From the sequence record MW882907: a stretch of DNA of 64,000 nucleotides; one strand, 5' to 3'. This document shows, one piece after another, positions 33,771 to 59,600 of this stretch. The position numbers and the translations under genes are program-made. Positions within the stretch are counted from its first letter, which is position 1; the number at the start of each line of letters is the position of its first letter. The notes under the pieces are model-generated. The model was not told the DNA's origin, ran no database searches, and saw only the letters and a program-made list of their open reading frames with translations. This DNA is from Escherichia phage vB_EcoM_SQ17.

Positions 33771-34349
33771 TTAATTACCACGGGCTGCATTAGCAACGGC
33801 ATAAGCGTACTGAACATTAGCGTCTTTAAACGTACCTTTAGAGGTATCTATTTCTGCCTTAAAGCCGCCTTTAGCCATAACATCGGCAAATTCTTTACGG
33901 AAAGCCATTGCATCAAGACCTTTCCATGATGATTTATGCTTGGCAAATTCAAGACCTGCGAAGTTGACAGCTTTAGCCAATTTATTATCAATGACCCATT
34001 TACCGGCTTTAGGCACAAACTTCGGTCCTTTTTGTTTAGAGAACAGTTTTAAATTCCAGCGACGAAGATCACTGTCGGCTTTAACAAAAGCTGCGTCTAA
34101 GTTACTAGCAACAACATCTTCAATATGAGCAAATTTAAGTCCGTCAACTTCAATATTTAGATCGTTACGCCAGCGAAGTCCTTCCCAAGCGAAGGCTTTA
34201 AAATCAGAAGCTTTTGTGGCTAGATATCGTTCAAGTGGAGCAGTTTTAGGGTCAAAGCCGTTTCCGCCACGATAAGTCCACTCGTCCTTATTAATGCCTT
34301 GAGCTTTTCCTGCAAAGGCCTCGGCGATAAATTCTTTATATGTTTTCAT
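33771..34349 (-). CDS. internal protein (capsid-targeted) family member
   Basis: Track ORF trimmed to ATG: MKTYKEFIAEAFAGKAQGINKDEW... 192 aa; CTS-type N-terminus. Confidence 0.6.
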   Translation of the reverse strand: MKTYKEFIAEAFAGKAQGINKDEWTYRGGNGFDPKTAPLERYLATKASDFKAFAWEGLRWRNDLNIEVDGLKFAHIEDVVASNLDAAFVKADSDLRRWNLKLFSKQKGPKFVPKAGKWVIDNKLAKAVNFAGLEFAKHKSSWKGLDAMAFRKEFADVMAKGGFKAEIDTSKGTFKDANVQYAYAVANAARGN

Positions 34350-34412: not shown

Positions 34413-34673
34413 TTAAGCTTTACCGCCAGAAATAATTCCGAAGTTGTTAAAATCGTATCCAATATCGTCAACATCTACTTTAGGGCTTGCTACAACATAA
34501 GCAATTTCACTACGTTTTGCATAGGTGTTGATTTCTTTACCATCGCCACCTAAGAAAAAATACCCATTACGTTTTAATGAGCCAAAGTCTTCCGCATCAC
34601 CAATGAAAGCTTTAACTTTAAATTTAGGACCTTTGGCATCTGCTTCAATGATAAATTCTTGATACATTTTCAT
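34413..34673 (-). CDS. internal protein (capsid-targeted) family member
   Basis: 86-aa ORF starting MKMYQEFIIEA. Confidence 0.6.
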   Translation of the reverse strand: MKMYQEFIIEADAKGPKFKVKAFIGDAEDFGSLKRNGYFFLGGDGKEINTYAKRSEIAYVVASPKVDVDDIGYDFNNFGIISGGKA

Positions 34674-35151: not shown

Positions 35152-35433
35152 CTATTTTTCTGAAGCGCCTGAAATATATTTTTCAAGACGTTGTTTCATC
35201 AGCGAGCCGTTCTTAGCGATTTCTTCCGGTTTATCACACATACGCAACAAGGCTTCAAGCTTAACGATATCGCTGGTACGTTCAAATTTGCGAGTATCTA
35301 TCTTACTAGCAAGTTCAGAAATACGTGCTAATAGACTTTCGGCTTCAACCAAAGCTGCACCTAGCTTAGTTGCAAAGGTGTCAGTAGCTTCGTTAAGAAT
35401 AGATTCTGATAAAAATTCACTATATGTTTTCAT
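35152..35433 (-). CDS. internal protein (capsid-targeted) family member
   Basis: Track ORF trimmed to ATG: [18 protein letters not shown]...; ATGA overlap with lysozyme stop. Confidence 0.6.
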
Positions 35434-35952: not shown

Positions 35953-36426
35953 TTATAGGATGGTAGTGAGCACCTTATATAATGATTTGCCCATTACATA
36001 TTCCCATTGAGAAGGTTTAATTAAAGCGAATGCATCAAATTCAGGAATCTGTCGTCCGTCTGGGAACGTATGATAGGAATTACAAACACTGTTTCTGAAT
36101 TGCTCGTGCTCTACAGGGATGGTATATAAGAACAGATGAATATTCTTATTGTCTGAGTAATGATGATCACCTAGGTCTTTCAGGAAGGCAGGGTCATATT
36201 GTGTAAACCCGGTTTCTTCTTCGCATTCACGAATAGCGGCTTCGATAGGAGATTCGCCGGGCTCGACACGACCTTTAGGAATATCCCACCGATGAGCTAA
36301 AGAACCTTTAGGACGAGAACCAGTTACACGCCCCATGAATAATTCTTTATCTTCGGTAAGGAAAATAATACCAGCTGATAGTTCTTTCACTTTATTTTTC
36401 TTACTCATCATCTCAAATTCCTGCAT
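35953..36426 (-). CDS. nudE: Nudix hydrolase NudE
   Basis: 157-aa ORF with Nudix box GRVEPGESPIEAAIRECEEETG. Confidence 0.8.
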   Translation of the reverse strand: MQEFEMMSKKNKVKELSAGIIFLTEDKELFMGRVTGSRPKGSLAHRWDIPKGRVEPGESPIEAAIRECEEETGFTQYDPAFLKDLGDHHYSDNKNIHLFLYTIPVEHEQFRNSVCNSYHTFPDGRQIPEFDAFALIKPSQWEYVMGKSLYKVLTTIL

Positions 36427-36806
36427 TCGGTAATAAAACGTTCAACTTCATTATTCTTGGCCTTTATCTTGTCTTTATGTTCTTGTAAACTACTTTTAAT
36501 AAGATTAATAATGATGGCAGCGGTACCGCCGCCAATGATGCCACCAACAACACTTATGATAATAGATGCTAATAAGATAGCAATAATATCAACAAAACCG
36601 AAAGAACTCACCTTAGTACTGAAAAACCATATAGACGGTACAAATATAATCCATCCTGTTATCCATTGACACTTATTGAAAAACTTTTCAAGCTCAGCTT
36701 GAGTTGTTCGTATTACTTCATCGATAGGTTGATATCCATTAATGTATCTGTTCACGATAATACCTGCTGGCTGGTCGATTTTAAATTCTTGGCAAATACG
36801 TTTCAC
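36408..36806 (-). CDS. membrane protein
   Basis: 132-aa ORF, no ATG (GTG start), two hydrophobic helices and glycine zipper VVGGIIGGGTAAIII. Confidence 0.4.
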   Translation of the reverse strand: MKRICQEFKIDQPAGIIVNRYINGYQPIDEVIRTTQAELEKFFNKCQWITGWIIFVPSIWFFSTKVSSFGFVDIIAILLASIIISVVGGIIGGGTAAIIINLIKSSLQEHKDKIKAKNNEVERFITECRNLR

Positions 36807-36887
36807 TAAGTAGGATGGACATCCTGTCCAATCTACTGAATAGTATGAAATACCTTCATTGATTAGACCAATATGTTTTGTTAATCA

Positions 36888-37574
36888 TTACCAGCCTTCC
36901 ATAGGGAATTCCAGATAAACTTGAGCATTGACACGAATTTCATTGGTAATCTTTTTAACTCGGTCTGTATTACGAGATACACGTCCGAACCAACGCCATC
37001 CATTACTAATTGCACGAGAACCAGTGTGCCATGTTTGCCAATCAAACTGAAGAAGAGTACGATCTGGAGCTTCCCATTTCTCTAGTTCACCTTTTTCAAT
37101 TTTTTCGAGGACTTCTTTGTGCCACTGACGATAGATAAGTTCGCCATCAGGAATCTGACTGAACTCTGCAGTTCCTGTTGCAAAATGAGTAGGACACACG
37201 TCAGCGTTAACAAGACCAAGAATATGTTCAGACAAATAGCGAGGATTGTCATAATCAGGTTGTCCTGCAGTAATAAAGTGTTGACCAACTGGAATATCAG
37301 GGCGTGGTACATCATCATGGTGATATCCAGGAATAGCAGGATACCAACCAGGCATCAGCATGTGGACTCGTGAATCAAATACTACATCAGAGTCTTTCCA
37401 ATCGTCAGGAAGATTTTGGATAAAGCTACGAGTAATTGGGCCGCCATTATCAAAAGCAAAATTCAAATCGCAGTTAAAGAACATAGGCTCGTTTTTAATC
37501 TGGTCGTTTTTAATCGCATGAGCAAAACCACCTACTGCACGAGCTTGACTATTAAACACTTTAGAACTATTCAT
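36888..37574 (-). CDS. hypothetical protein (possible 2OG-Fe(II) oxygenase-like; weak)
   Basis: 228-aa ORF, ATG start; His/Asp cluster GYHHDD and later WHTGSRA are the only suggestive motifs. Confidence 0.5.
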   Translation of the reverse strand: MNSSKVFNSQARAVGGFAHAIKNDQIKNEPMFFNCDLNFAFDNGGPITRSFIQNLPDDWKDSDVVFDSRVHMLMPGWYPAIPGYHHDDVPRPDIPVGQHFITAGQPDYDNPRYLSEHILGLVNADVCPTHFATGTAEFSQIPDGELIYRQWHKEVLEKIEKGELEKWEAPDRTLLQFDWQTWHTGSRAISNGWRWFGRVSRNTDRVKKITNEIRVNAQVYLEFPMEGW

Positions 37575-37575
37575 A

Positions 37576-37881
37576 TTATTTTCCTCGACATTCTTTAATG
37601 AAATTTTCTAGATTGGTAGATTCAATAGCTTTTTTACGAGCTTCCGCGTGTTCTTCTTCAGACAATTTACGTTTATAATTGACCCAGACATTATGGTCGA
37701 AACTAGTCGTGGCATATAATAACAATGCTCCAACGAATAGCAAAAACGGCGATAAGAATACAAAACCAGGAACACCATCCATATCGTAAGCCTTTTGTAA
37801 TACTGCAACAGAAAGAGCTGCGTAAAAAGGTGATGCAAATATTGTTAAAAGACCGATTCGATTGGTTTCTGTTAATTTCAT
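37576..37881 (-). CDS. membrane protein
   Basis: 101-aa ORF with two hydrophobic helices, ATG start, early promoter upstream. Confidence 0.5.
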   Translation of the reverse strand: MKLTETNRIGLLTIFASPFYAALSVAVLQKAYDMDGVPGFVFLSPFLLFVGALLLYATTSFDHNVWVNYKRKLSEEEHAEARKKAIESTNLENFIKECRGK

Positions 37882-37909
37882 AATATTCTCCTCATGTTTT
37901 AATAGGACT

Positions 37910-37940
37910 ACTATAACATAGTCCCTATAATTGTGTAAAC
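37910..37940 (-). promoter_or_regulatory. T4-type early promoter
   Basis: Minus strand GTTTAC, spacer, TATAGT; ataggactactataacatag repeat family. Confidence 0.5.
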
Positions 37941-37952
37941 AGTTTTGTGAAG

Positions 37953-38909
37953 TTATTTGAAAGGTTTTACCATATGGAAATTTTGTTTGAAACGTTTGAC
38001 GTAATCGTCATGTCCTAAGCTTTGGTACATACTTACTACTTTGCTGTAGTTTTCCCAGGCATACTCACGGAACCAACCAGAGGTGATGCTTGTGCAGACT
38101 TTTTCCAATGCCATCATGAAACTGGCTTCAGGGTTAATTTTAAAGTCATTAGGAATTTGAGAACGTTCTAATGCTAGTACACATGATTCTTCGTATACAC
38201 CGGCCAATTTGACCATTTCTGGTAATGATTCAAACTTCTCGCGTGAGGTCATGACTTCAGAACCGTCTTTCATATAAAATGTATACGCTGGACAGTCTGT
38301 TAGTGCAATGGCTTCATGAATAGTATCATGGTCATATGTATAGATGTCATCTTTAAAGAACGCACTTTTAGAAGTGTCAAGAACCGGGTGAGCATAGTTC
38401 AAGGTTTCTTTCTGGCGTTTCAGCATAATTTCAGTAAGTTCATCGTTCAGTGTAACACCTTTACCACGAAGATACTGAATATGGTTCATAGTCTTTAAAA
38501 AGAATGGATTATTTTTCTTGAAACGATGAGACATCTTAATGGCAAGACATATCTCAGGAGTTGCCCAGTAAAACCCGTTCAAACGGTCTTTAGTCAAATT
38601 TTTCTTGGCGTATTTTAAAAGGCCATAAGAAGACGTGAAATCTTCAGGAGTGAGTTCACCGACTAATTCACGGACATTAGTGATTGCCGGAACAATATAT
38701 GCTTCAAAATGAGTTTCGCGTCCATTATGGAAGCATTTGAAAACTTGGACATCAGGGTTATCTTGATGAACATATACACCCATCATTTGATTTTTGAATG
38801 CATTCCAAGAACCTTGGTCTGCAATAAAGTCCCAGTCACTATTTTTGATAGCGTTAGAATCAATAAGACCATGATAGTGAAGTGCACGAGAACCAATAAC
38901 TAACATCAT
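37953..38909 (-). CDS. hypothetical protein (possible NTase-fold; weak)
   Basis: 318-aa ORF, ATG ATG start; N-terminal IGSRALHYHGLIDSNAIKNSDWDFIAD loosely resembles G-S...D-x-D nucleotidyltransferase motif. Confidence 0.5.
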   Translation of the reverse strand: MMLVIGSRALHYHGLIDSNAIKNSDWDFIADQGSWNAFKNQMMGVYVHQDNPDVQVFKCFHNGRETHFEAYIVPAITNVRELVGELTPEDFTSSYGLLKYAKKNLTKDRLNGFYWATPEICLAIKMSHRFKKNNPFFLKTMNHIQYLRGKGVTLNDELTEIMLKRQKETLNYAHPVLDTSKSAFFKDDIYTYDHDTIHEAIALTDCPAYTFYMKDGSEVMTSREKFESLPEMVKLAGVYEESCVLALERSQIPNDFKINPEASFMMALEKVCTSITSGWFREYAWENYSKVVSMYQSLGHDDYVKRFKQNFHMVKPFK

Positions 38910-38933
38910 AATATTTTCCTCGGATTAATTAAC

Positions 38934-39185
38934 TTAAATTTCACGACATGCGATATCATATTCATCCCAGAGGTCATCATGTGAAGCCTCTACCAATGGA
39001 ACGATTGTACCATTTATGTCTTCGTTATAAGGGCAAATTGTACAGTGTGCATCTTCAAATCGGATGCCTTTGTGTTCAGATTTTTTATAACGCATATCGA
39101 ATATCTTTGCAAACTTTTCACGAGTAATGGTTTTAGCAACCACTTCGGTTCCGATACTTTCGTAATAAATCATTGTGGACTCCAT
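38934..39185 (-). CDS. hypothetical protein
   Basis: 83-aa ORF, ATG start, Cys/His-containing. Confidence 0.45.
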   Translation of the reverse strand: MESTMIYYESIGTEVVAKTITREKFAKIFDMRYKKSEHKGIRFEDAHCTICPYNEDINGTIVPLVEASHDDLWDEYDIACREI

Positions 39186-39201
39186 TTAATTTGATAGGAC
39201 T

Positions 39202-39231
39202 ACTATAACATAGCCCTATCTTGTTGTAAAC
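39202..39231 (-). promoter_or_regulatory. T4-type early promoter
   Basis: Minus strand GTTTAC, spacer, TATAGT. Confidence 0.5.
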
Positions 39232-39235
39232 TGTT

Positions 39236-39433
39236 TTAGCAAGAATAACTAGATGATACCCAGCCTTGAACAGTAATGCTATTATTGGATAATGAGATCG
39301 CGTCCTGGAGATTCAGACCTGCGTTATCTTCAATCCACAATGTAACTTCTTCGCGTTCTTCTGTTGCAATTTGGAACAGGTTTTCCAGAGCAGCTACTGC
39401 CGTACGTACAGCACAATCTAATTCACGAGACAT
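39236..39433 (-). CDS. small protein, C-terminal GW-x-SS-x-x-C family, copy 1
   Basis: 65-aa ORF ending ...ITVQGWVSSSYSC. Confidence 0.45.
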   Translation of the reverse strand: MSRELDCAVRTAVAALENLFQIATEEREEVTLWIEDNAGLNLQDAISLSNNSITVQGWVSSSYSC

Positions 39434-39442
39434 ATGGTTTCC

Positions 39443-39715
39443 TTAGCAAGTGTGAGAAGATGCAATCCAACCACCAGTTTCGAGGCTCAGGTTGTAGTCG
39501 TATTGGTAAACGTCAGCCCATTCGGCATAGCCGTTTTTTGTACAACGTTCAAGATCGGCTTTAAGTTGTCCGGGTGAATGATAGGTTCCACCCATACCAT
39601 AAGCTGGATACAAGTTGAATGTTGTGTTTTGTTTATCAGCAATTTCTTTGGCAGCCTCAATAGCTGCATAGATTTTTGCTACGGCTTCAGCCAGTTCGGT
39701 TTGTTCTTTAGACAT
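39443..39715 (-). CDS. small protein, C-terminal GW-x-SS-x-x-C family, copy 2
   Basis: 90-aa ORF ending ...ETGGWIASSHTC. Confidence 0.45.
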   Translation of the reverse strand: MSKEQTELAEAVAKIYAAIEAAKEIADKQNTTFNLYPAYGMGGTYHSPGQLKADLERCTKNGYAEWADVYQYDYNLSLETGGWIASSHTC

Positions 39716-39768
39716 AATGATTCCTTAGCACATCGCAGAAGACGAAACCCAAGCACCTTTGGTAATAG
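39716..39768 (-). pseudogene. remnant of a third GW-x-SS-x-x-C family gene (C-terminal fragment only)
   Basis: Frame without start codon encodes ...FIPSITKGAWVSSSAMC then TAA; upstream in-frame stop. Confidence 0.3.
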
Positions 39769-39798
39769 AGGGTATGAATTAATAATAACACATAATTC

Positions 39799-40314
39799 TT
39801 AAAGCAAATCAATCATTTTAACGGTTGGCAAAACGATTTCTTCTTCAATATAAGCAAATTCGACACGTTCAACTACACGCAAGAAATCATAATCATAATA
39901 TTCAGAAGCATGGCCAAGAATATCAGTGAGACCTTCTGATACCAAATATCCATTCTCACGGAACAGGTCAAATACACGTGATTCGTCTTCTTCAGATTTA
40001 TTACCGAGGTCGACTTCAATATCAAAGACCTTTTTAATGAATTCTGGATAAAGCTGGTCCGAGAACAGTCCTTCAACCAAGTATTCATAGATTAAAAGCG
40101 AGCAATCACTGAATAGTGTATTACCACAGTAACGTTCAGCTTTAGTACTAGAATGACGACTCTTAAATTTCTTCAAGAGATATTTAAACTGTTGGATCTC
40201 ATGCTCTTCTACACCAAATAATGTTTTGGTTTTATAATTGTCGCCATCATTTTCCCAAGTAGTGACATCAATTACGTAACCTTTAGGAATTGTACTGCCT
40301 AAACAAATATTCAT
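39799..40314 (-). CDS. hypothetical protein
   Basis: 171-aa ORF, acidic. Confidence 0.5.
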   Translation of the reverse strand: MNICLGSTIPKGYVIDVTTWENDGDNYKTKTLFGVEEHEIQQFKYLLKKFKSRHSSTKAERYCGNTLFSDCSLLIYEYLVEGLFSDQLYPEFIKKVFDIEVDLGNKSEEDESRVFDLFRENGYLVSEGLTDILGHASEYYDYDFLRVVERVEFAYIEEEIVLPTVKMIDLL

Positions 40315-40318: not shown

Positions 40319-40609
40319 TCACCGTACCATATTAATGTAATTATATTCAATGCAACGCAATTTCAAAGGATTCTTGAAAATATCATATTCAAGAGGGCCT
40401 TTTTCTGTTTCAATAAAGAAATCAAAGTTAACTGTGTTAAATTTACCATCTTCACAGAGTAATTTAACCTGTGAAGACGAACGGTCGATATAAACCTTTT
40501 CAACTTCAAAAATAGTCAAAATACCATAGTCATCGACCAGTGCTTTAGCTGCACGTTGATCGCTTTCATATCCATTCTCGACAGATTTTACTTTAGCATA
40601 AAGAATCAT
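40319..40609 (-). CDS. hypothetical protein
   Basis: 96-aa ORF. Confidence 0.5.
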   Translation of the reverse strand: MILYAKVKSVENGYESDQRAAKALVDDYGILTIFEVEKVYIDRSSSQVKLLCEDGKFNTVNFDFFIETEKGPLEYDIFKNPLKLRCIEYNYINMVR

Positions 40610-40986
40610 GAGTGTTCCACCACTTCAAAAGTATGTGCACTGACAATCTGGTACCAGTCAAAATTTTCTTCAGCATTTTTGTAGATTTCACGAAGAGCTT
40701 CAACAGTTTTTCCTGTAGCAACAAGATCGTCAATACCGCCAAGAGGATAACAGTCGTAACCAGCAAACAGAAGGAAATTAATAGTTTCTGTAGGTTCTGG
40801 ATGCAGAATACCGTTATCATCTACCACTTCAAAGAAAGTGTAAGAAGGAGTACAAGTTTTAATCCAAGCCCAGGCTTGAGCCGCTGAATCAAATGGTCTG
40901 CGTATCAAACGACAATCAGGGTCTTTAGAAGGATTTGCTTCAAAATCCGCATATACTTGATATTTCATTTTACTCACCTTTTGCAA
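40606..40986 (-). CDS. hypothetical protein
   Basis: 126-aa ORF, overlaps neighbours by 4 nt and 17 nt. Confidence 0.5.
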   Translation of the reverse strand: MQKVSKMKYQVYADFEANPSKDPDCRLIRRPFDSAAQAWAWIKTCTPSYTFFEVVDDNGILHPEPTETINFLLFAGYDCYPLGGIDDLVATGKTVEALREIYKNAEENFDWYQIVSAHTFEVVEHS

Positions 40987-41155
40987 TTTTATCCATAACG
41001 ATAGCGATTAAGCCGATTAGAAATGCTACTACCAATGAGATAGAATTTTCTGTTGTTGTCAGTAGTCCACAAATGAATCCTACAAACATCGAAAAACTAA
41101 AAGCCATTGAAGCAATTACTACAGCAACATTACGAATCAGTTCAGCGCGTTTCAT
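40970..41155 (-). CDS. small membrane protein
   Basis: 61-aa ORF with two hydrophobic helices. Confidence 0.45.
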   Translation of the reverse strand: MKRAELIRNVAVVIASMAFSFSMFVGFICGLLTTTENSISLVVAFLIGLIAIVMDKIAKGE

Positions 41156-41183
41156 TTTATTCTCCTCAGTAGTTGATAGGGTA

Positions 41184-41213
41184 ATAGTATCACTACCCTA
41201 TCTAAAAGTAAAC
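41184..41213 (-). promoter_or_regulatory. T4-type early promoter
   Basis: Minus strand GTTTAC, 18-nt spacer, TACTAT. Confidence 0.5.
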
Positions 41214-41224: not shown

Positions 41225-41533
41225 CTATTTTATTCCGCGTGATGCAATCGTATTCTGCCGTTTAACGCCAGTTTGTTTAAAGTTATGATTGTCGAGTTGA
41301 TCGGTACGAGCAACTCCGAATGATGATTTAATCTTAGCTTTAGATCCTTTAGTTATAGAAATATACATCTCGGGAGCCCCTTTCTTAAAGTCCGAAGCAA
41401 TTACTTCAACACCGTTCTTAGCAAGTGACCTCAGAATTGCTTCCGCATACTCATCATCAAGACCCGCTTGAGTATGAATAACGAATGTCTTTGGCGCAGC
41501 TGCTTCACAGATAAATTCTTTAAATGTTTTCAT
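41225..41533 (-). CDS. internal protein (capsid-targeted) family member
   Basis: 102-aa ORF starting MKTFKEFICEA. Confidence 0.6.
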   Translation of the reverse strand: MKTFKEFICEAAAPKTFVIHTQAGLDDEYAEAILRSLAKNGVEVIASDFKKGAPEMYISITKGSKAKIKSSFGVARTDQLDNHNFKQTGVKRQNTIASRGIK

Positions 41534-41563
41534 TTTATTTTCCTAATTAATTTTGATGAGATA

Positions 41564-41593
41564 ATAGTACCACAACCCTATTTAAAAGTAAAC
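41564..41593 (-). promoter_or_regulatory. T4-type early promoter
   Basis: Minus strand GTTTAC, spacer, TACTAT. Confidence 0.5.
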
Positions 41594-41866
41594 TCATTTT
41601 AAATAAATTGCGTATTTTTTATAACCCGCTGTCTCATGTCGAAGACCCTTATCATTAGCAAAACGCTCAATGTTGTTAATTTGATTCTGGTCAAGTTCAG
41701 AGATGTCAAACACGAAATAGTTACGTTTGTTACCAACTGTTACATAGTCAGTTAAATCAATACCATATAGGTAATTGATGTTATCAATCATAGTCTTGAC
41801 AGCTTTGCTAATTTTTACTTTTTCATTAAAAGCAGCTTCATTGATAAATTCTTTAAATGTTTTCAT
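41594..41866 (-). CDS. internal protein (capsid-targeted) family member in the ipI position
   Basis: Track ORF trimmed to ATG: MKTFKEFINEAAFNEKVKI...; directly upstream of 57B as ipI is in T4. Confidence 0.6.
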   Translation of the reverse strand: MKTFKEFINEAAFNEKVKISKAVKTMIDNINYLYGIDLTDYVTVGNKRNYFVFDISELDQNQINNIERFANDKGLRHETAGYKKYAIYLK

Positions 41867-41902
41867 TTTATTCTCTAATTTCACATTTGTTTTGATAGGA
41901 TG

Positions 41903-41942
41903 ATAGTAACACACCATCATCCTTATGTAAACTGTTTTGTGA
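41903..41942 (-). promoter_or_regulatory. T4-type early promoter
   Basis: Minus strand GTTTAC, spacer, TACTAT. Confidence 0.5.
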
Positions 41943-41944: not shown

Positions 41945-42630
<686 letters not shown>

Positions 42631-42634: not shown

Positions 42635-43369
42635 TTACCTTAAGATTGTTTCAATTTTAGAATAAAGCTCTTCTAAAGAGCCGTCGTTTGTAATAACTAA
42701 ATCGCCTTCTTCAATAGGCAACCCAGCTTCTGTAATATGTTTATCGGTGGATTCCGTACCAGAGCGAACCACATGAATAACTGTAGCACCCATCGCTCTA
42801 GCGGTTTCCATTTCATGGACTTGGCGTGTATCGGTCACAACGTAGTAATCGAAATCACTTCCAATATAATCCATATAGTTTAATGCAAAAAGCTTAACCC
42901 AATACATACGGTCAAATAAATTAACGACAACATCCGTACCGAGGGCTTGCATAAGACGGCGGATTGACCATGTGTCGTTGATATTATTTATAGCTTCACG
43001 CAGGGCTTCATATGGTTTAATATCTAGATATGAATACCCACCTTCTAATGATGATAATACTTTAACATTATTAATTGGTAAATATTGACTTTGTAAATAA
43101 ATTAGCGCTTCTTCCAATAATTCAATAACATCCAACTTATTGATATTTAATGGTGTTTCACGGTCGTATCCAATGCCTTCAAAGTATTCATATTTCAACT
43201 CGGTGAATACATCCGGGTTTTCGGCGTGTTTACGCTCCCAAGCTATTGCTAGAGCGTCTTTAATTGGATATGCTAATTGATATTTTATGGATTTAAAGTT
43301 TGAATTGATGTAATCAGCGGTGGTGTCTTTACCACTACGTTTGATGCCGCTTAAAAAGATTAGCTCCAT
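42635..43369 (-). CDS. 1: deoxynucleoside monophosphate kinase gp1
   Basis: 244-aa ORF with P-loop LSGIKRSGKDT. Confidence 0.85.
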   Translation of the reverse strand: MELIFLSGIKRSGKDTTADYINSNFKSIKYQLAYPIKDALAIAWERKHAENPDVFTELKYEYFEGIGYDRETPLNINKLDVIELLEEALIYLQSQYLPINNVKVLSSLEGGYSYLDIKPYEALREAINNINDTWSIRRLMQALGTDVVVNLFDRMYWVKLFALNYMDYIGSDFDYYVVTDTRQVHEMETARAMGATVIHVVRSGTESTDKHITEAGLPIEEGDLVITNDGSLEELYSKIETILR

Positions 43370-43422
43370 AGGTTTTCCTCATATAATTTATGAGTGATTA
43401 TAACATACGGAGCTAGAAGCGA

Positions 43423-44007
43423 TTAACGCAAGGAAGGGTGTCTAGAAATGGATTTAGATTCGACTGCTTGACGTGGTTGTTGAGATACAATGACTTCGCC
43501 ATCCTTTTCTATCGTCATATACGCGTAGTGAATAGTTGCTACGCACGTAACGGCAGGGTCAGAGTCTTCGGTATAACTAAATTCAATTTCACTCAAATCA
43601 GAAATCCATGGTTTATAGAAATTTGCCGTCAAAACTACTTCGGTCTTATTGTTGTTTAAAATGTGCAAAGTAACAAACTCAGGACCATCAGAGTGGGCCG
43701 TATTATGTCCGGTTATATAGTTATTAGTGCTGAGCATCCATTTATACATGTTCATCCAGGACGTCATGTCTTCATCAACTATAAATCGTACAACAAAAGG
43801 GTCATATTCAAATGTAGTGCCTGCACGCATTGCACGTCCTAACCCCATTGTGCCTGTCACAGTTTCAACAACAGGAATTCTCACACCTGGCAGTGGAGCC
43901 GTTTGGGCATTGAGCACAAAACCTGAAGTTCGTGTACTATCCGGGATATCCACAACAAAGTTTGTTATATTTGTTTGGTTAAAAATCTGTCTCGCTGGAC
44001 GAGTCAT
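43423..44007 (-). CDS. 3: tail completion / sheath stabilizer gp3
   Basis: Track ORF trimmed to first ATG; position between genes 1 and 2. Confidence 0.7.
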   Translation of the reverse strand: MTRPARQIFNQTNITNFVVDIPDSTRTSGFVLNAQTAPLPGVRIPVVETVTGTMGLGRAMRAGTTFEYDPFVVRFIVDEDMTSWMNMYKWMLSTNNYITGHNTAHSDGPEFVTLHILNNNKTEVVLTANFYKPWISDLSEIEFSYTEDSDPAVTCVATIHYAYMTIEKDGEVIVSQQPRQAVESKSISRHPSLR

Positions 44008-44109
44008 AAGCACCTCAAAAACGCTTTAATAAAAATGCAGTATAATGGTTTTAGGTCTCTTCCATTAATCTGGTTCAACAGAATATCAGAAGAACGGAAG
44101 AGAATAGAA

Positions 44110-44931
44110 TTAAGATTTCCAAACAGTATTCGCAGAGAAACGTTTTCCTTTTGACATAAACTGCTGAGTAGGTAACATGATTATGTTAGCCCAGTCTTTA
44201 GGAGCGATTTCTGTTATTGTTCCTCTAATGTGGCCTGGCAGGTATGCTTTAATCATTTTGTCAGCACCTTGAAATCCTTTCACCTTGCTCCAGTCTATTT
44301 TCAACTTTGTGTTATTAGTAATAGTAGTTGTGCTAGCATATTGCTTCAGCAATTCTTCAAGAAACTGTTGTCGTGCTTTAGGTGGGATATAGTGCAAGTT
44401 TAACCCATACATCAAATTATGTTTACCTAATCCTAAATAAATAATCAAAGGATATCGGTCCCAATACGGCAGAGTATCTTTATGTTTAGCATCATACACG
44501 TAAGTATAAATTTTGCCTGGCGTAGGCTTGACTACTTTATGACCTTTTACACTTTTCTTAATTGTTTCAACAAACCACTTAGATGATTTGTTGTTTACTG
44601 CTGCGCCTTCATTTCTAATCTTTTCTCGTATTGAACTGCGAAACGAGTTTATCATCAGAAGTTGACGTTCTTGTTTATTGAGTTTATTTTTAGGTTTAGA
44701 TTCAAGCGTTTCAATTTTCTGTGCAGTCTTAATAGATGATGCATATCTAGACATTGCAGATGTAAACGACGAGTATTTTATTCCTTTTGATTCTGCAAAT
44801 GCTTTTGCAGTGATTCCTTTCTCTTTAGCTTTCTTGTATTCTAATCCTATCTCAATCCATTTTCTTTCATTCATAGACTGAGCAATCTTAGGGGCTTGTA
44901 CGCCTTCAGATATAATTTGGAATATGCTCAT
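44110..44931 (-). CDS. 2: DNA end protector gp2
   Basis: 273-aa ORF; size and position match T4 gp2. Confidence 0.8.
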
Positions 44932-44933
44932 AA

Positions 44934-45383
44934 TTACCCCTTGTATCCGAGTTTTCTAAGACCATCCTCGGTTAGAACTCGGAATTTTATATTTCTCTTT
45001 TCAGCAACAGCTGAGGCAGCTTTCCATTTGTCACAGTTCACAGACCAGGTATATATTTCATTCATATAACGTTTCTTTGCTGCAGTCGTAAGATTTGCAG
45101 GCTTAATAGGTGGTTGAGTTTCTTTCTTTGGTTTTATTTCTACAAAGAACTCTTGACCTGATGCATCTTTCATCCATATGTCCATATAGTATCGACGTTT
45201 CTTACCTTCAGCATTACAAAAATATGGAATTACTGCTGTTTCACTACCCCATGCAATAATTTCTGGATTTTTATCTAACCATTCGAAAAAGAATTTTTCC
45301 CAGTTTGAACGATACGTTATTTTGGTATGGTCTCCACGGTATTTTTTTAAATTTTTTGGGACCCATTTACCAGAGTAGGCCAT
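44934..45383 (-). CDS. 4: head completion protein gp4
   Basis: ATG at 45383 ([19 protein letters not shown]...) giving 149 aa, downstream of a minus-strand late promoter; longer track ORF would overlap gene 53. Confidence 0.75.
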
Positions 45384-45394
45384 GTTGTCCTCCT

Positions 45395-45402
45395 TATAAA
45401 TA
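45395..45402 (+). promoter_or_regulatory. late promoter (TATAAATA) for gene 53
   Basis: Exact TATAAATA about 45 nt upstream of gene 53 start. Confidence 0.55.
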
Positions 45403-45409
45403 GTATTAT

Positions 45410-45417
45410 TATTTATA
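45410..45417 (-). promoter_or_regulatory. late promoter (TATAAATA) for gene 4 operon
   Basis: Plus tatttata = TATAAATA on minus, about 27 nt upstream of gene 4 ATG; divergent with the gene 53 promoter. Confidence 0.5.
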
Positions 45418-45444
45418 CCAATTTCATATTGGAAGGAGACTATC

Positions 45445-46020
45445 TTGTTATTTACATTCTTCGACCCAATAGGATATAGTGCTAAAACAGTTAATAAGAA
45501 TGCACCTACTATTCCTATGACAGACATATTTCGTAACTATAAAGAGTACTTTAAGCGTGTTGCTGCCAATTATAGATTACGTTCTTATTATATTAAAGGC
45601 TCTCCGCGTCCTGAAGAACTAGCAAACATAATTTATGGCAACCCTCAATTATACTGGGTCCTTTTGATGTGTAATGACAACTATGATCCGTATTATGGTT
45701 GGATTACATCTCAGGAAGCGGCGTATCAAGCTTCTATTCAGAAATATGCTAATGCTGGCGGCGACCAAATTCTTTATCATATTAATGAAAATCGTGAGAA
45801 ATTTTACAATTTGGTTTCATATCCGGATGAGCCTTTAGTGTGGTACGATAAAGGTGATGAAGCTCGTAAGTATCCGCAATATAAAGGACCTTTAGCTGCA
45901 GTAGATACTTATGAAGCGGCAGTATTAGATAATGAAAAACTTCGTAAAATAAAAATTGTTGCAAAAGAAGATATAAACTCGTTTATCACAGATTTGATTC
46001 GTGAGATGGAGATTGCATAA
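45445..46020 (+). CDS. 53: baseplate wedge protein gp53
   Basis: 191-aa ORF MLFTFFDPIGYSAKTVNKNAPTIP...; first codon is TTG preceded by GGAAGGAG Shine-Dalgarno. Confidence 0.85.
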   Translation: MLFTFFDPIGYSAKTVNKNAPTIPMTDIFRNYKEYFKRVAANYRLRSYYIKGSPRPEELANIIYGNPQLYWVLLMCNDNYDPYYGWITSQEAAYQASIQKYANAGGDQILYHINENREKFYNLVSYPDEPLVWYDKGDEARKYPQYKGPLAAVDTYEAAVLDNEKLRKIKIVAKEDINSFITDLIREMEIA

Positions 46021-47753
46021 TGGAAATGATTAGCAGTAGCCTTAATTGGTTCGTGGGTGTTGTCGAGGACAGAATGGACCCGTTAAAACAAGGGCGAGTT
46101 CGAGTTCGAGTCGTTGGTCTTCATCCAGCGCAGAGAACACAAGGTGATGTACAAGGTATTCCTACAGAAAAACTTCCATGGATGACTGTTATTCAACCTA
46201 TTACGTCTGCATCAATGTCAGGTATTGGTGGTTCTGTTACAGGTCCTGTTGAAGGAACTCGAGTATATGGTCATTTCTTAGACAAATGGAAAACAAACGG
46301 GATTGTACTTGGTACATACGGCGGAATAGTACGTGAAAAGCCTAATAGACTTGAAGGTTTTTCAGACCCGACAGGCCAGTATCCGCGACGTTTAGGTAAT
46401 GATACGAACGTACTAAACCAAGGTGGTGAAGCTGGTTATTATTCGAACTCTAACGTAATTCAAGATAACAACTTGGATTATGGTATAAACCCAGACGATA
46501 CAGATTTAGCAAATATTCCAGAAGATGATGACCCTAATTTTACAATAACAGAAATGTTACGTCGTGACGAAGGTCTTCGTGATAAAGTGTATTGGGACCA
46601 TCTCGGATATCCTACAGTAGGTATTGGACACCTTATCGTAATGGAAAAGACCCGAGATATGTCTCGAATTAATAAATTGTTATCTGATCAAGTAGGGCGT
46701 GAAGTAACAGGAAATCCCGGGACTATTACATTAGAAGAAGCAACAGCGTTATTTGAGAAGGACCTTGCTAAGATGCAGAAAGACATTCGTTCTAATTCTA
46801 AAGTAGGTCCTGTTTATGCTAAAATGAACAGATCTCGCCAAATGGCATTAGAAAACATGTGCTTCCAGATGGGCGTTGGCGGTGTAGCAAAATTCAATAC
46901 TATGCTTAAAGCAATGGCCACAGGCGATTGGAAAACCGCATACAAATCCGGACGCGATTCGTTATGGTTCCAACAGACTAAAGGGCGTGCTTCACGTGTA
47001 ACAACAATTATTTTAACCGGTAACATGGAATCATACGGTGTTCCTGTTAAAACACCGCCTTCACCAGGAGTTGGTGCCGATTTAGTTACTAGAAATACCG
47101 ATCCAGAAGACCCGGCCGGTCCTCCTATTCCGTTAGATTCACGTATCCTTTTTAAAGAACCAGAATCAAGTTATCGTGGTGAGTATCCATACGTTCATGC
47201 TATGGAAACAGAAAGCGGTCATATCCAAGAATTTGACGATACTCCAGGTAATGAACGTTATCGCTTAGTTCATCCAACAGGGTCATATGAGGAAGTTTCT
47301 CCGTCGGGGCGTCGTACTCGTAAAACTGTAGAAGACCTTTTTGACATCACTAATGGCGATGGGAACTTCTTGATTTCCGGTGATAAACTTGTTAACGTTG
47401 GTGCTAATGAAATATATTATAACATGGCCGACCGCCTCCATCAAATAGACGGCAATGACACAATCTTTATTCGTGGTAACCAATCTAAAACTGTTGAAGG
47501 CGATGGAACTCTTTACGTTAAGGGCAATATCAAAATAGTTGTTGACGGAAATGCGGATATTCTTGTTAAAGGTGATGCTAAAACTCAGGTCGAAGGGAAT
47601 CATGATTACACCGTCAACGGAAACGTTAAATGGACTGTTAATGGTAATGTTGATATGACTGTTGCCGGGGATTGGGCAGAGACAATGTCTACAATGAGCT
47701 CAATAGCTTCAGGACAATACACTGTTGACGGATCTCGTATTGATATTGGGTAA
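46020..47753 (+). CDS. 5: baseplate hub / tail lysozyme gp5
   Basis: 577-aa ORF; central lysozyme domain (DEGLRDKVYWDHLGYPTVGIGHL) and C-terminal V-x-G-x beta-helix repeats. Confidence 0.9.
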   Translation: MEMISSSLNWFVGVVEDRMDPLKQGRVRVRVVGLHPAQRTQGDVQGIPTEKLPWMTVIQPITSASMSGIGGSVTGPVEGTRVYGHFLDKWKTNGIVLGTYGGIVREKPNRLEGFSDPTGQYPRRLGNDTNVLNQGGEAGYYSNSNVIQDNNLDYGINPDDTDLANIPEDDDPNFTITEMLRRDEGLRDKVYWDHLGYPTVGIGHLIVMEKTRDMSRINKLLSDQVGREVTGNPGTITLEEATALFEKDLAKMQKDIRSNSKVGPVYAKMNRSRQMALENMCFQMGVGGVAKFNTMLKAMATGDWKTAYKSGRDSLWFQQTKGRASRVTTIILTGNMESYGVPVKTPPSPGVGADLVTRNTDPEDPAGPPIPLDSRILFKEPESSYRGEYPYVHAMETESGHIQEFDDTPGNERYRLVHPTGSYEEVSPSGRRTRKTVEDLFDITNGDGNFLISGDKLVNVGANEIYYNMADRLHQIDGNDTIFIRGNQSKTVEGDGTLYVKGNIKIVVDGNADILVKGDAKTQVEGNHDYTVNGNVKWTVNGNVDMTVAGDWAETMSTMSSIASGQYTVDGSRIDIG

Positions 47754-47756
47754 TAT

Positions 47757-48272
47757 ATGGCACAAATACTTCCTTTAAATACCGACTTAGGAGAAGACAT
47801 GGAAGGGGCGTCTATTGACGTCCTTTTTACTCCACAGTTAGAAACAACCGAAACTTTAGTGTCAATAAATATAACAGATTATGAACCGACACAAGGCATT
47901 ACGGTAGATGGTAATCGTTTATATGGAACATATGAAAGTGTGTTTAGCTTTTCTTCGGATGCATTGAAATACCGATTAAATGATGATTTTGAAACCGCAT
48001 CTTCATGGGATGATTTACCAAAAGATGAATCCACACAGTTATATTTGTGGAGAGCTCCTCAGAATCTTCGTAAAGTGTTTAGTTATACGGTTGAAATGAT
48101 TTATAACTACCAAGAAGAAAGTTCATCAGGCGGTTCTAGAAGTGACTCTGCTACAGAACCTCCACCGGCTCCAGTACAAAAAACTCTTACTAAGGTTTAT
48201 ACAAAAACTATAGTAGGAAATTGGAGCAAATGGGCTCAACAATTACGAAACTATGTTTATGCGAGGCCATAA
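47757..48272 (+). CDS. 5.1: gp5.1-like protein
   Basis: 171-aa ORF immediately after gene 5. Confidence 0.6.
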
Positions 48273-48274
48273 AA

Positions 48275-48568
48275 ATGTCTGGATTAAGTTACGACCAGTG
48301 CGTTACAACAGGTCATGAAGCATGGCCTCCTACAGTAATTAATGCTTCTCAATCTAAAGTATTCACCGGCGGTATTCCTGTTCTTGTAGCAGGAGACCAA
48401 ATAACACCTCATACAGAAATTAAAAAACCGTACGAGACTCATGGTGGTGTTACTGAACCTCGTACATCTAAAGTATATGTCACCGGTAAAAAGGCCGTTC
48501 AAATGGCTGACCCAATTTCATGCGGGGATACTGTTTCTCAGGCCTCGTCAAAAGTCTTTATAAAATAG
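48275..48568 (+). CDS. 5.4: gp5.4-like PAAR-repeat spike tip protein
   Basis: ATG at 48275: [48 protein letters not shown]... 97 aa, PAAR-like. Confidence 0.7.
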
Positions 48569-48576
48569 GAATTAAA

Positions 48577-50547
48577 ATGGCAAACACTCCTGTAAATTAT
48601 CAGTTAGTCAGAACGGCGAATGCTATTCCCGAAATTTTTATCGGGGGCACATTTGCCGAAATCAAACAGAATATTATCGAATGGCTCAACGGACAGAATG
48701 AATTTCTTGATTATGATTTTGAAGGTTCGCGTTTAAACGTATTGTGTGACCTTTTAGCATATAACACTCTTTACATCCAACAGTTCAGTAATAGTGCAGT
48801 GTATGAAAGCTTTATGCGTACTGCAAACTTGCGTAGTTCCGTTGTACAAGCGGCTCAAGATAACGGATATCTGCCTGCATCTAAATCAGCAGCACAAACA
48901 GAAATTATGCTCACATGTACGGATGCATTAAATAGAAACTATATCACTATTCCACGTGGCACTCGTTTCTTAGCATACGCTAAAGATACTTCTGTTAACC
49001 CGTATAACTTTGTTTCTACTGAAGATGTCATCGTAGTTAAAGACAAAAATAACCAATATTTTCCACGTCTTCGATTAGCTCAAGGACGTATTGTTCGCAC
49101 TGAATTAACATTTGATAGATTAAAACCTATCATTATTCGTGATAAGAATATTGACCGTAATTTGGTTAAGTTGTATGTTGACGGAGCAGAATGGATTAAC
49201 TGGACTCGCAAATCGATGGTTCATGCTGGTTCTACTTCAACCATTTATTATATGCGAGAAACTGTTGACGGGAACACTGAATTTTATTTTGGTGAAGGTG
49301 AAATCTCTATTAACACATCAGAAGGTGCTTTAACATCCAACTACATTGGTGGCCTTAAACCTGTCCAGGGTTCTAAAATCGTAATTGAATATATTTCTAC
49401 TAATGGTGCTGAAGCAAATGGTGCAGTAGGATTCTCTTATGCTGATACATTAGCTAATATCACAGTTATTGGAATTAATGAAAACCCAAGTAATAACCCT
49501 GACTTCGTTGGTGCGGATGGCGGTGGCGACCCTGAAGATATTGAACGTATCCGTGAATTAGGTACAATTAAACGTGAAACTCAACAACGATGTGTGACTG
49601 CGACTGATTACGACACATTCGTCTCTGAACGATTTGGTTCTATTATTCAAGCGGTTCAGACATTTACGGATTCATCTAAGCCTGGGTACGCATTTATTGC
49701 TGCTAAACCTAAGTCTGGGTTATATTTGACTTCCGTCCAACGAGATGATATTAAAAATTATCTTAATGAGTATAACTTAGGGACGATAACTCCTGTTGTT
49801 ATTTCTCCTGATTATTTGTTTATTAAAATGAATATTCGCGTTACGTATGCATTGAACAAATTACAAGAATCTGAACAATGGTTAGAAGGCCAAATTATTA
49901 ATAAAATAGACCGTTATTATATTGAAGATGTAGAAATTTTTAACTCATCATTTGCAAAATCTAAAATGCTAACTTATGTCGATGATGCAGATATTTCTAT
50001 TATTGGTTCTTCAGCTACTATTCAAATGGTTCGCGAGGTACAGAACTTCTACAAAACACCTGAAACAGGTATTAAATACAATAACCAGATTAAAGATAGA
50101 ACATTAGAATCTAACGTGTTTTCATTTGATAGTTTACGCGTTGACCCTGAAACGGAAGCTACTATTAAATATGACGTTCGCATTGTAGGTTCAGATAGAA
50201 ATGACCGTGGCATTGGACAAGTTATTATTGGCCCGTTTGCAGATGGCGACGTTATAGAAAATGCTTATATTCAACCATATACTGGTGACGATTTTAATAA
50301 ACTTCATGTTACGGACGGAAGAAACAAATATTACTCTATAGGTGAAGTAAATTATCCGGCTGATTCAATTTATTGGAATATAGCTAAAATTGATTTAACT
50401 TCTGATAGGTTTGAAGTTCAAACTATTGAACTCTATTCAGACCCAGCTGATGATGTTATCTTTACTAAAGACGGGTCATTAATTGTATTTGAAAATGACT
50501 TACGTCCGCAATATTTAACCATAGATTTGGAGCCTATTTCACAATGA
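48577..50547 (+). CDS. 6: baseplate wedge protein gp6
   Basis: ATG at 48577: MANTPVNYQLVRTANAIPEIFIGG...; about 656 aa. Confidence 0.9.
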   Translation: MANTPVNYQLVRTANAIPEIFIGGTFAEIKQNIIEWLNGQNEFLDYDFEGSRLNVLCDLLAYNTLYIQQFSNSAVYESFMRTANLRSSVVQAAQDNGYLPASKSAAQTEIMLTCTDALNRNYITIPRGTRFLAYAKDTSVNPYNFVSTEDVIVVKDKNNQYFPRLRLAQGRIVRTELTFDRLKPIIIRDKNIDRNLVKLYVDGAEWINWTRKSMVHAGSTSTIYYMRETVDGNTEFYFGEGEISINTSEGALTSNYIGGLKPVQGSKIVIEYISTNGAEANGAVGFSYADTLANITVIGINENPSNNPDFVGADGGGDPEDIERIRELGTIKRETQQRCVTATDYDTFVSERFGSIIQAVQTFTDSSKPGYAFIAAKPKSGLYLTSVQRDDIKNYLNEYNLGTITPVVISPDYLFIKMNIRVTYALNKLQESEQWLEGQIINKIDRYYIEDVEIFNSSFAKSKMLTYVDDADISIIGSSATIQMVREVQNFYKTPETGIKYNNQIKDRTLESNVFSFDSLRVDPETEATIKYDVRIVGSDRNDRGIGQVIIGPFADGDVIENAYIQPYTGDDFNKLHVTDGRNKYYSIGEVNYPADSIYWNIAKIDLTSDRFEVQTIELYSDPADDVIFTKDGSLIVFENDLRPQYLTIDLEPISQ

Positions 50548-53500: not shown

Positions 53501-53642
53501 ACGCAAGCCAATGAGCCCATTATTTGATGCATCAGGTACAACGTTCTCTAGATTTAGAGAGCTTGTTAATGAAAGATTGTTAGATAACGTGGGAAATCCT
53601 AGAGACCCGATTAATCCACCACAGGTTAAATTAGATGAATGA
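50544..53642 (+). CDS. 7: baseplate wedge protein gp7
   Basis: 1032-aa ORF, ATGA overlap with gene 6; size identical to T4 gp7. Confidence 0.9.
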   Translation: MTVKAPAVTSLRLSKLSANQVQIRWDEVGANFYYFVEIAETKTANGEAIPRNSYRWTNLGYTADNNFFESGLNSLTTYMMRVATAAEGFEQSDWRYTEEFETFEINAYTFQHMIEMQLANEFISEKFTKNNTNYVDFNNDTIMAALMSESFQFSPAYTDVSSIRNFIIGENQYHEIQGHIQDVCKDINRVYLMESEGILYLFERFQPIVKVSNDKGQTWKAVKLLNDRVGYPLSRTVYYQSEYTTYLLGYDKIFYGRKSSDIRWSADDVRFSSQDVTFAKIGDRLNLGFDVEIFGTYASLPGNVSRIAEAITCNDDYVYIAARDKVRFVKTSNAPIDSDPLSPTYSERLFEPETFTITGNPKAVCYKMDSVGGRIFALIIGEVENVNDDPRTKPILDSVDKGVYVLDHDAGTFKRIFGNTEEERRRIEPAFTNMSTDGAELYISSSNFKFLESDIVDDPETQSKYELLGAVKYEYPREWLADKHYHMMIFASNEESNWETFSPTPMQYYAEPFFSYSRKSGTRSWINNSDRAVVIYSDLLYTKVVESHPSTSPDRKVHEYWNDGDCKIVMPNIEFTGFKKYASGMLFYKSSGEIISYYDFSYRVRDNVSIIWKPTNVFLTSSLQNQEKETSWVPVEETGLADPDLRPLLTTMMPESYLLDNTNFEAFCEAYIQYLSDGYGTHYNNLLNLIKNKYPREEHAWEYLWSEIYNRNIYLNAEKRDLVSRFFESRSYDFYSTKGTEASYKFLFKVLYNEDVEVEIESSAGTEYDIIIQSDSISEDLVGQTIYTATGRCNVTYLERSYSKGKLQWTVTIHNLLGRLLVGQEVKAERLADFEGEIVRGIKGKELAQNTIDYFNRGRAYYVMKIKSNLPSSRWKSDVLRFVHPVGFGFIAITLLTMFINTGLTLKHVETIINKYKNYKWDSGLPTEYADRVARLDPQGNVEFNPVTGEVIYDAGPYAGIEYPLPANYNEENDNSIFQGQLPSERRKPMSPLFDASGTTFSRFRELVNERLLDNVGNPRDPINPPQVKLDE

Positions 53643-54639: not shown

Positions 54640-54643
54640 TTTA

Positions 54644-54666: not shown

Positions 54667-54668
54667 TG

Positions 54669-54676: not shown

Positions 54677-54701
54677 GTATAAACTATTAAGGATTAGCCA
54701 C

Positions 54702-59591: not shown

Positions 59592-59600
59592 GGGTAAAAA

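Follow-up and report, generated by a model that had tools for sequence, protein, structure and literature searches.

Introduction

The internal proteins (IPs) of T-even phages are diverse anti-restriction proteins, of which IPI* inhibits the GmrS/GmrD enzyme, and a capsid-targeting sequence suffices to encapsidate proteins, foreign ones included, in the T4 scaffolding core (PMC3012670). Type IV restriction enzymes of the GmrSD type are blocked by Ip1, Ip2 and Ip3, a different one by each (PMC12373910), and Bas37_0260, a leader protein from the ipI locus of phage Bas37, blocks McrBC (10.1101/2025.11.20.689424). The IP genes occupy two loci, flanked by PeSL-like promoter/stem-loop elements, and more than 30 IP variants have been described, the early promoters of T-even phages following the consensus TTTACW-N17-TAYWAT (PMC2839356, PMC4122927). 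The polymorphism of the IP loci and their flanking repeats go back to Repoila 1994, as reported in PMC2839356 and PMC4122927, and both the locus polymorphism and the promoter/stem-loop cassettes are already published (Repoila 1994, as reported there; Arbiol 2010; Comeau 2014). Here we analyse two such genes, encoding proteins of 90 and 102 amino acids (aa), in a 64,000-nucleotide stretch of Escherichia phage vB_EcoM_SQ17 (sequence record MW882907), referred to in its full length as the window and to which all positions refer unless another record is named. By profile and sequence comparison they are members of the named Ip9 and Ip7 families, and they lie in tandem in the slot that holds ipI in T4.

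The source phage belongs to the Tevenvirinae, genus Mosigvirus. Its structural region (43400..64000) is 97-98% identical to those of phages PHB12 and SF, and the IP locus itself is 97.7% identical to that of vB_VIPECOMC06. The DNA of Mosigvirus has been reported to carry arabinosyl-hydroxymethylcytosine, not glucosyl-hydroxymethylcytosine (hydroxymethylcytosine is abbreviated hmC below; PMC8594841).

Results

Two genes of the Ip9 and Ip7 families

The 90-aa protein matches the profile of PHROG 7673 ('internal head protein') with an E-value of 2e-54 and is 87% identical to Ip9 of RB15 (UniProt Q38376) and 83% identical to the proteins named 'ip9' in VR20 and VR26. Its closest database copy is found in Salmonella phage F13076 (98.9% identical), and the family is present in 173 phage records. 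The 102-aa protein matches PHROG 2667, also an 'internal head protein' profile, with an E-value of 2.5e-40, and shares 90% identity with 'internal head protein 7' of T2, 91% with Ip7 of RB32 and 86% with ip7 of CC31; its family occurs in 283 phage records, as compared with 291 for T4 IPI*. Judged by these matches, the 90-aa protein is a member of the Ip9 family and the 102-aa protein a member of the Ip7 family, both named in 1994. An earlier, sequence-only reading of the window (hereafter the original prediction) had proposed that the two open reading frames (ORFs) are internal-protein-type genes with a capsid-targeting leader, which the ORFs themselves, their leaders and their PHROG matches bear out. 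The novelty that it implied does not hold, as the families are named, their members are labelled 'internal head protein' in many records and tandem arrays of such genes have been published.

Both ORFs carry at residue 1 a leader of the T-even form MKT(Y/F)(Q/K)EF(I/L)xE, which is kept in all members of the two families; the N-terminal sequence is MKTFKEFINEAA / MKTFKEFINEAAFNEKV / MKTFKEFINEAAFNEKVKISK in the 90-aa ORF and MKTFKEFICEAA / MKTFKEFICEAAAPKTF / MKTFKEFICEAAAPKTFVIH in the 102-aa ORF. The leader ends in (L/I)-x-E followed by a small residue, I-N-E/A in Ip9 and I-C-E/A in Ip7 (the slash marks the putative cut), a junction that is likewise kept in all homologues. Cleavage at this point is predicted to yield basic mature forms, of 80 aa with an isoelectric point (pI) of 8.9 for Ip9 and of 92 aa with a pI of 9.8 for Ip7. 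Within a six-frame translation of the window, the pattern MK[TSM][FY]xEF[IL]xE is matched six times, always on the minus strand and always at the first residue of the respective leader ORF, where 2.6e-5 matches per window are expected by chance from composition and none was obtained in 200 shuffles. The window thus holds six leader-bearing ORFs (at 41594, 41225, 35152, 34413, 33771 and 33403), in agreement with the number of leader-bearing proteins that had been proposed for the phage.

Both genes are real and under purifying selection. The ratio of non-synonymous to synonymous substitution rates (dN/dS) against relatives lies between 0.07 and 0.26 in seven of eight comparisons, as for functional coding genes, with values of 0.07-0.10 for Ip9 against distant alleles and of 0.15-0.26 for Ip7; the eighth comparison, of Ip9 with its closest relative, gives 0.81 but rests on very few substitutions. 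The alleles are saturated at synonymous sites (dS about 2), yet the leader and the I-x-E/A junction are kept at the protein level.

The program-made list of ORFs gives the Ip9 gene as 108 aa, from an ATG further upstream. We take 41866 as its real start because the upstream ATG falls in the promoter and nearly all homologues are 90 aa long. A metagenomic cluster (P0001, 107 aa) represents Ip9 over-extended in the same manner, from an ATG within its promoter, an annotation error that could propagate.

In the AlphaFold model of Ip9 (predicted local distance difference test score, pLDDT, of 75), a floppy leader precedes a compact alpha-beta-beta-alpha-beta-beta core over residues 21-88, and in that of Ip7 (pLDDT 71) residues 15-80 form a ferredoxin-like beta-alpha-beta-beta-alpha-beta core. 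As modelled, these folds allow no functional inference. The C-terminal tail of Ip7 (HNFKQTGVKRQNTIASRGIK, residues 83-102, encoded at 41225..41284 on the minus strand) is basic and rich in lysine and arginine, and it is nearly invariant even in alleles of 63% identity, yet it is modelled as disordered (pLDDT about 40); we regard it as a candidate binding motif for a target or for DNA. A sequence search of the PDB with Ip9 gave no match, and that with Ip7 gave weak matches (best E-value 0.0077, to a DARPin), among which no stretch passes alone and which we treat as noise. The Pfam matches to AbiJ_NTD3 (16.9 bits, cut-off 32.5) and Tenui_NS4 are below threshold and were also taken as noise. We further considered whether Ip7 and Ip9 are diverged duplicates of each other, and rejected this, as they are identical over residues 1-12 only and the leader-stripped hhalign probability is 0.1%.

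Tandem cassettes in the slot of T4 ipI

Read leftward, the gene order of the region is gene 1, 57A, 57B/Acb1, Ip9, Ip7, trna.4, trna.3, trna.2 and a PHROG 2290 gene (Table 1), and that of T4 is 57B - ipI - trna.4 - trna.3 - trna.2 - eight tRNAs - segB. Since trna.4, trna.3 and trna.2 come directly after Ip7, both IP genes lie in the single slot between 57B and trna.4, which is the ipI slot of T4. This slot is one of the two IP loci, the other being the e/denV region. The 90-aa gene, which adjoins 57B, was therefore rightly placed in the ipI position by the original prediction, but the 102-aa gene does not occupy the space that in T4 holds tRNA genes and segB, where the same prediction had put it, as the three trna homologues follow it at once. 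Both genes had further been described as lying directly upstream of 57B: they do adjoin it, and on its upstream side in plus-strand coordinates, but because they are transcribed leftward they are downstream of it in transcription.

Table 1. Positions of the two IP genes, their leaders and promoter cassettes, and the neighbouring genes in the window.
Feature	Position	Strand	Remarks
Gene 1	42635..43369	leftward	
57A	42400..42630	leftward	
57B homologue (Acb1, anti-CBASS nuclease)	41945..42400	minus	conserved upstream border of the ipI slot
Early-promoter cassette before Ip9 (GTTTAC...TGtTACTAT)	41892..41932	minus	11-bp stem-loop between -35 and -10
Ip9-family gene	41594..41866	minus	90-aa precursor; ORF and leader, PHROG 7673
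Ip9 codons 1-10, putative capsid-targeting leader MKTFKEFINE	41837..41866	minus	ends in an I-x-E site of the prohead-protease type
Early-promoter cassette before Ip7	41553..41593	minus	begins right after the Ip9 stop codon; mosaic
Ip7-family gene	41225..41533	minus	102-aa precursor; ORF and leader, PHROG 2667
Ip7 codons 1-10, putative capsid-targeting leader MKTFKEFICE	41504..41533	minus	
Third promoter cassette, before the trna.4 homologue	41173..41213	minus	downstream edge of the array; 9-bp stem-loop, z -2.6
trna.4 homologue (61 aa, hydrophobic)	40970..41155	minus	conserved downstream border of the ipI slot; PHROG 1692
trna.3 homologue	40606..40968	leftward	
trna.2 homologue	40319..40609	leftward	

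The slot holds one to five leader genes in relatives. It contains ipI in T4; an 84-aa leader protein and then Ip7 in T2; an 85-aa leader protein and then Ip6 in Bas37; a divergent Ip7 (Ip7', 63% identical in PHB12) and then a divergent Ip9 (Ip9', 69% identical) in G2285 and PHB12; five leader ORFs, Ip9 and Ip6 among them, in VR20; and Ip9 followed by Ip7 in the window. PHB12 is 97.7% identical in its structural genes, but its IP gene order is reversed and its alleles are divergent. Of the queried 1.55-kb stretch with both IP genes, at least 80% is covered in each of 63 phage records, and tandem leader-gene cassettes in the ipI slot are an ordinary, published arrangement. The 'ip7 protein' of Escherichia phage OLB35 (P0017, 77 aa) is without a leader and is chimeric, with the middle region of Ip7 joined to the C-terminus of Ip9', as would result if a deletion had fused neighbouring Ip7 and Ip9' genes in the order seen in G2285 and PHB12.

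The borders of the slot are clear from homology. The trna.4 homologue is near-identical to T4 Trna.4 when the translations are set side by side, and matches T4 at the nucleotide level; the T2 record labels it a 'putative Cro/CI-type repressor'. The 57B protein has been identified as Acb1 (PMC9117128; preprint 10.1101/2025.11.20.689424) and is labelled 'RNA ligase' in many database records although it is an anti-CBASS nuclease. Both labels are annotation errors that could propagate. The site expected for the tRNA/segB cluster is left of trna.2; searches with ARAGORN and Rfam gave no tRNA gene and no Rfam family match in the whole window, the stretch 36000..40300 included. The closest relative, vB_VIPECOMC06, has a tRNA-Met and a homing endonuclease after trna.2, and colinearity with this phage (97.6%) ends at about 39752, just before its tRNA-Met.

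Promoter cassettes, stem-loops and repeats

The T4-type early-promoter motif GTTTAC-N15-TGNTANNAT is present in seven copies in the window, all on the minus strand, where 0.02 are expected. One copy lies before Ip9 (41903..41932), one before Ip7 (41564..41593) and one before trna.4 (41184..41213). At both IP genes the motif, in the form GTTTAC-N15-TGnTACTAT, precedes a purine-rich ribosome-binding site (AGAGAATAAAATG before Ip9 and AGGAAAATAAAATG before Ip7), so that the proposal of an early promoter of its own for each gene holds at the level of the consensus. A sigma-70 scan detects the Ip9 promoter alone (with TG; TTTACT/TACTAT, 8/12), and the T4-type motif was used in its place.

Between 41100 and 41990, the promoter cassette forms a 41-nt direct repeat in three copies, with spacings of 380 and 339 nt, and these can be aligned with the cassettes before ipI and trna.4 in T4, T2 and Bas37 at a mean column identity of 70%. 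The Ip9 cassette aligns with the upstream cassette of T4 ipI, and its stem-loop has a folding energy of -7.9 kcal/mol (z -2.7). Unlike the other two copies, the cassette before Ip7 gave no stable stem-loop on folding. It is a mosaic, with a 5' half of the type that precedes trna.4 and a 3' half identical in sequence to the cassette before ipI in T4 and T2, as a crossover falling between the -35 and -10 elements could have produced. A further repeat, of 45 nt, spans the ribosome-binding site and the leader codons and is 91% identical between Ip9 and Ip7, the remainder of the two genes being unrelated. Recombination at the cassettes is something that we infer solely from their mosaic structure.

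The nearest exact late-promoter box (TATAAATA), and the sole one near the locus, lies at 42985..42992 on the minus strand, within gene 1. Read-through from this box late in infection could produce transcripts that cover 57A, 57B, Ip9 and Ip7. At 42666..42682 there is a weak hairpin that resembles a terminator.

Relation to internal proteins of known function

Bas37_0260, the McrBC inhibitor, belongs to the Ip6 family, as judged from the gene of Bas37 (MZ501089) that we translated for this analysis. Homology of the two window proteins to Ip6 was rejected: with the leaders removed, Ip7 and Ip6 compared pairwise give an E-value of 0.15, and hhalign against Ip6 gives probabilities of 0.3% for Ip7 and 0.7% for Ip9. 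Comparison with T4 IPI led to the same outcome: BLASTP aligns residues 1-9 only, or a spurious 32-residue stretch, tblastn of T4 IPI against the window gave no match, and IPI* is absent from the fold-search matches of Ip7 and Ip9. With IPII and IPIII, both proteins share leader matches only (BLASTP, and tblastn against the window). Clear orthology to a characterised IPI with a known target was thus not found, the leader alone aligning.

No homologue of IPI, IPII or Ip6 was found in the window. The sole IP of the window with a characterised orthologue is the IPIII gene at 33771..34349, which is 93% identical.

Two other leader ORFs have relatives in the ipI slot of other phages. The sixth leader ORF (34413..34673, minus strand, 86 aa) has a variant leader, MKMYQEFIIEA, and shares, in its mature part, 41% identity with VR20_153, a protein of the ipI slot in VR20; as this family is seen at both sites, it occurs in either IP locus. 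Gene e and denV flank another leader ORF (35152..35433, minus strand), whose 93-aa product shares 48% identity with the first-position ipI-slot protein of T2 and Bas37 (named 'ipI' in Bas37). This ORF begins within the final part of the lysozyme gene and is without a promoter cassette of its own.

The Ip9 domain outside T-even phages

In a profile search that covered 1.84 billion representative proteins, and with tblastn, the mature domain of Ip9 (from about residue 19; signature ...dL..kRn...d..l..N..NIER..N.kG.r.Ep.G.kk.A...) was also found without a leader, as stand-alone proteins of 66-77 aa in unrelated phages. In the Guernseyvirinae phage CR01, the leaderless protein is encoded at the head of an operon of small ORFs (L003:3007-3225). 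Other proteins, 85-87 aa long, combine the domain with variant leaders. In the Ackermannviridae it is embedded close to the C-terminal end of large mosaic proteins (PHROG 3867), such as the 1096-aa protein of ZQ1 (L004:355-3645), where it covers residues 900-954, and an 861-aa protein (P0037), where it covers residues 663-733. The set of proteins with a stand-alone or embedded Ip9 domain includes P0033, P0034, P0037 and P0040-P0043. The C-terminal module of the PHROG 3867 family matches LIMEstone1 ORF081 (L011:2730-3857), which is annotated as a 'confirmed structural protein'. Taken together, these occurrences suggest that the Ip9 domain is a portable module, delivered differently by different phages.

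Discussion

A probable account of the locus

We consider it probable, at roughly 0.65, that Ip9 and Ip7 are polymorphic T-even IP alleles, carried as tandem cassettes in the ipI slot, which are packaged and injected and each of which blocks a specific host defence protein. Each gene would be transcribed from its own T4-type early promoter and, late in infection, probably also by read-through from the late promoter inside gene 1. The 10-residue capsid-targeting sequence MKTFKEFIxE would send the precursor to the prohead scaffolding core, and the prohead protease gp21 would cut after the glutamate of I-x-E to leave the basic proteins Ip9* (~80 aa) and Ip7* (92 aa) within the head. Both would be ejected into the cell with the DNA, ahead of any phage gene expression, where each mature protein would bind and block one host defence protein. 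Recombination in the conserved flanks (the promoter/stem-loop cassette, the ribosome-binding site and the leader codons) would move the IP genes from one phage to another and from one IP locus to the other.

The account starts from what is observed at the locus: family identity, leader, cleavage-type motif, position, promoter cassettes, purifying selection and shuffling among relatives. Packaging, cleavage and injection of Ip7 and Ip9 would be expected from the family to which they belong. An anti-nuclease function is proposed by analogy only, and the likeliest target would be a nuclease that attacks hypermodified (hmC-derived) phage DNA, as for Ip1, Ip2 and Ip3 (GmrSD) and for Ip6 (McrBC).

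Several points weigh against this account. The mature parts of Ip7 and Ip9 have no similarity to IPI, IPII, IPIII or Ip6, either pairwise or by profile-profile comparison (<1%), and literature searches for Ip7 or Ip9 function, virion proteomics or N-terminal data, in any phage, found none; their packaging and cleavage are predicted from the leader. No late promoter (TATAAATA) lies directly upstream of Ip9 or Ip7, so that a supply of the proteins during head assembly would have to come from read-through or from the persistence of early product. The presence of the Ip9 domain in Guernseyvirinae and Ackermannviridae, in turn, weakens the assumption that the target is an hmC-specific enzyme, since, if those phages do not use hmC, the target of Ip9 need not be an hmC-dependent one.

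Alternative explanations

In one alternative, which we regard as unlikely, Ip7 and Ip9 do enter the cell from the capsid, but their target is no modification-dependent restriction enzyme; it would instead be another defence system, or a target of host takeover such as RecBCD, RNA polymerase or a protease. The Ip9 domain exists as leaderless proteins of 66-77 aa in unrelated phages (e.g., CR01) and inside a large Ackermannviridae protein, and is therefore useful in other phage lineages; neither Ip7 nor Ip9 is homologous to any IP with a known nuclease target; and the neighbouring 57B/Acb1 counters CBASS, so that the region is not dedicated to restriction. In contrast, the T-even IPs with a known target (Ip1, Ip2, Ip3 and Ip6) all inhibit type IV restriction enzymes, and delivery before gene expression pays most against enzymes that cut the incoming DNA. 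A mainly structural role, in which the two proteins neutralise DNA charge and aid packaging or ejection with no specific host target, would suit their basic mature forms (pI 8.9 and 9.8) and the conserved lysine/arginine-rich tail of Ip7, modelled as disordered, as well as the behaviour of T4 IPs, about 1000 molecules of which are embedded in the DNA with their lysines contacting DNA phosphates (PMC3012670). However, a generic role in charge leaves unexplained why unrelated folds are swapped in the slot, why close relatives differ and why leaderless Ip9 copies occur in phages without such a packaging system, and both slot genes of Bas37 are non-essential by HIDEN-SEQ (10.1101/2025.11.20.689424). 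We hold this role to be distinctly improbable.

Were the two proteins instead ordinary early cytoplasmic proteins that are not packaged, the leader would be what recombination in the conserved 5' flank had left behind. It is true that the promoters directly upstream are solely of the early type and that the leader codons lie within the 45-nt repeat, which could be maintained by recombination instead of function. Yet the leader and the I-x-E/A junction persist across alleles that are saturated at synonymous sites (dS about 2), leaderless relatives show that a protein with no need of the leader can do without it, and the capsid-targeting sequence is sufficient for the packaging of foreign proteins in T4 (PMC3012670), all of which makes us give this explanation very little credence.

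A broader possibility, which we put forward tentatively and think doubtful, is that the Ip9 domain is a portable effector in at least three unrelated lineages, with a target that is not hmC-specific and with leader and linker added in the T-even phages. It may then be delivered by three routes: capsid-targeted and injected in Straboviridae, leaderless from an apparent early accessory operon in Guernseyvirinae, and as an internal module in Ackermannviridae, where the family that hosts the module may include a virion protein confirmed by mass spectrometry. If this were true, Ip9 would act on a defence or host factor that is widespread among enterobacteria, and the T-even phages would have gained Ip9 by adding a 10-residue leader and a short linker.

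Significance and comparison with described systems

The finding is already known, in that it concerns the named Ip9 and Ip7 families at a well-documented polymorphic ipI locus. As a discovery it carries small weight, since the genes, the leader, the polymorphism and the cassettes have been described from 1994 on and are annotated in current databases. Its interest lies in the targets: work on Ip1, Ip2 and Ip3 (2007-2025) and on Ip6 (2025 preprint) has revealed that every one of them specifically inhibits a type IV restriction enzyme of its own, distinct from those of the others, and Ip7 (283 records) and Ip9 (173) are among the commonest IP families still without a known target. Their partners would extend the map of the defences countered by each injected protein, which bears on the prediction of host range for therapeutic T4-like phages.

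Compared with the PeSL cassettes (Arbiol 2010; Comeau 2014), the locus follows the described pattern in that a conserved element of ~40-70 nt with TTTACW-N17-TAYWAT bounds each IP gene, an AT-rich stem-loop lies between -35 and -10 in two of three copies, and the copies are mosaic among phages; it departs from it in that the Ip7 cassette has lost its stem-loop. The Ip9 of the window shares 83-87% full-length identity, the leader and the locus with RB15 Ip9 and the 'ip9' proteins of VR20 and VR26, and the Ip7 shares 86-91% full-length identity and the leader with those of T2, RB32 and CC31 and, in T2, the slot next to 57B, so that the differences are allelic only. The partners and their order are what vary: the companion of Ip7 in the T2 slot is the unrelated 84-aa leader protein, not Ip9, and in G2285 and PHB12 Ip7 precedes Ip9, opposite to the order in the window. 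Ip6 (Bas37_0260) is, as Ip7 is here, the second leader gene in a two-gene ipI slot, but its mature part is without homology to Ip7 or Ip9.

T4 IPI, finally, has the slot in common with the two proteins, begins with the same seven residues (MKTFKEF), is of similar size and is preceded by a homologous promoter cassette; it differs from both in its unrelated mature domain and in its leader, which is 19 residues long and ends in ITE/A, where that of Ip9 and Ip7 has 10. As the inhibitor of GmrS/GmrD, IPI/IPI* is the functional paradigm of a packaged, injected and target-specific inhibitor.

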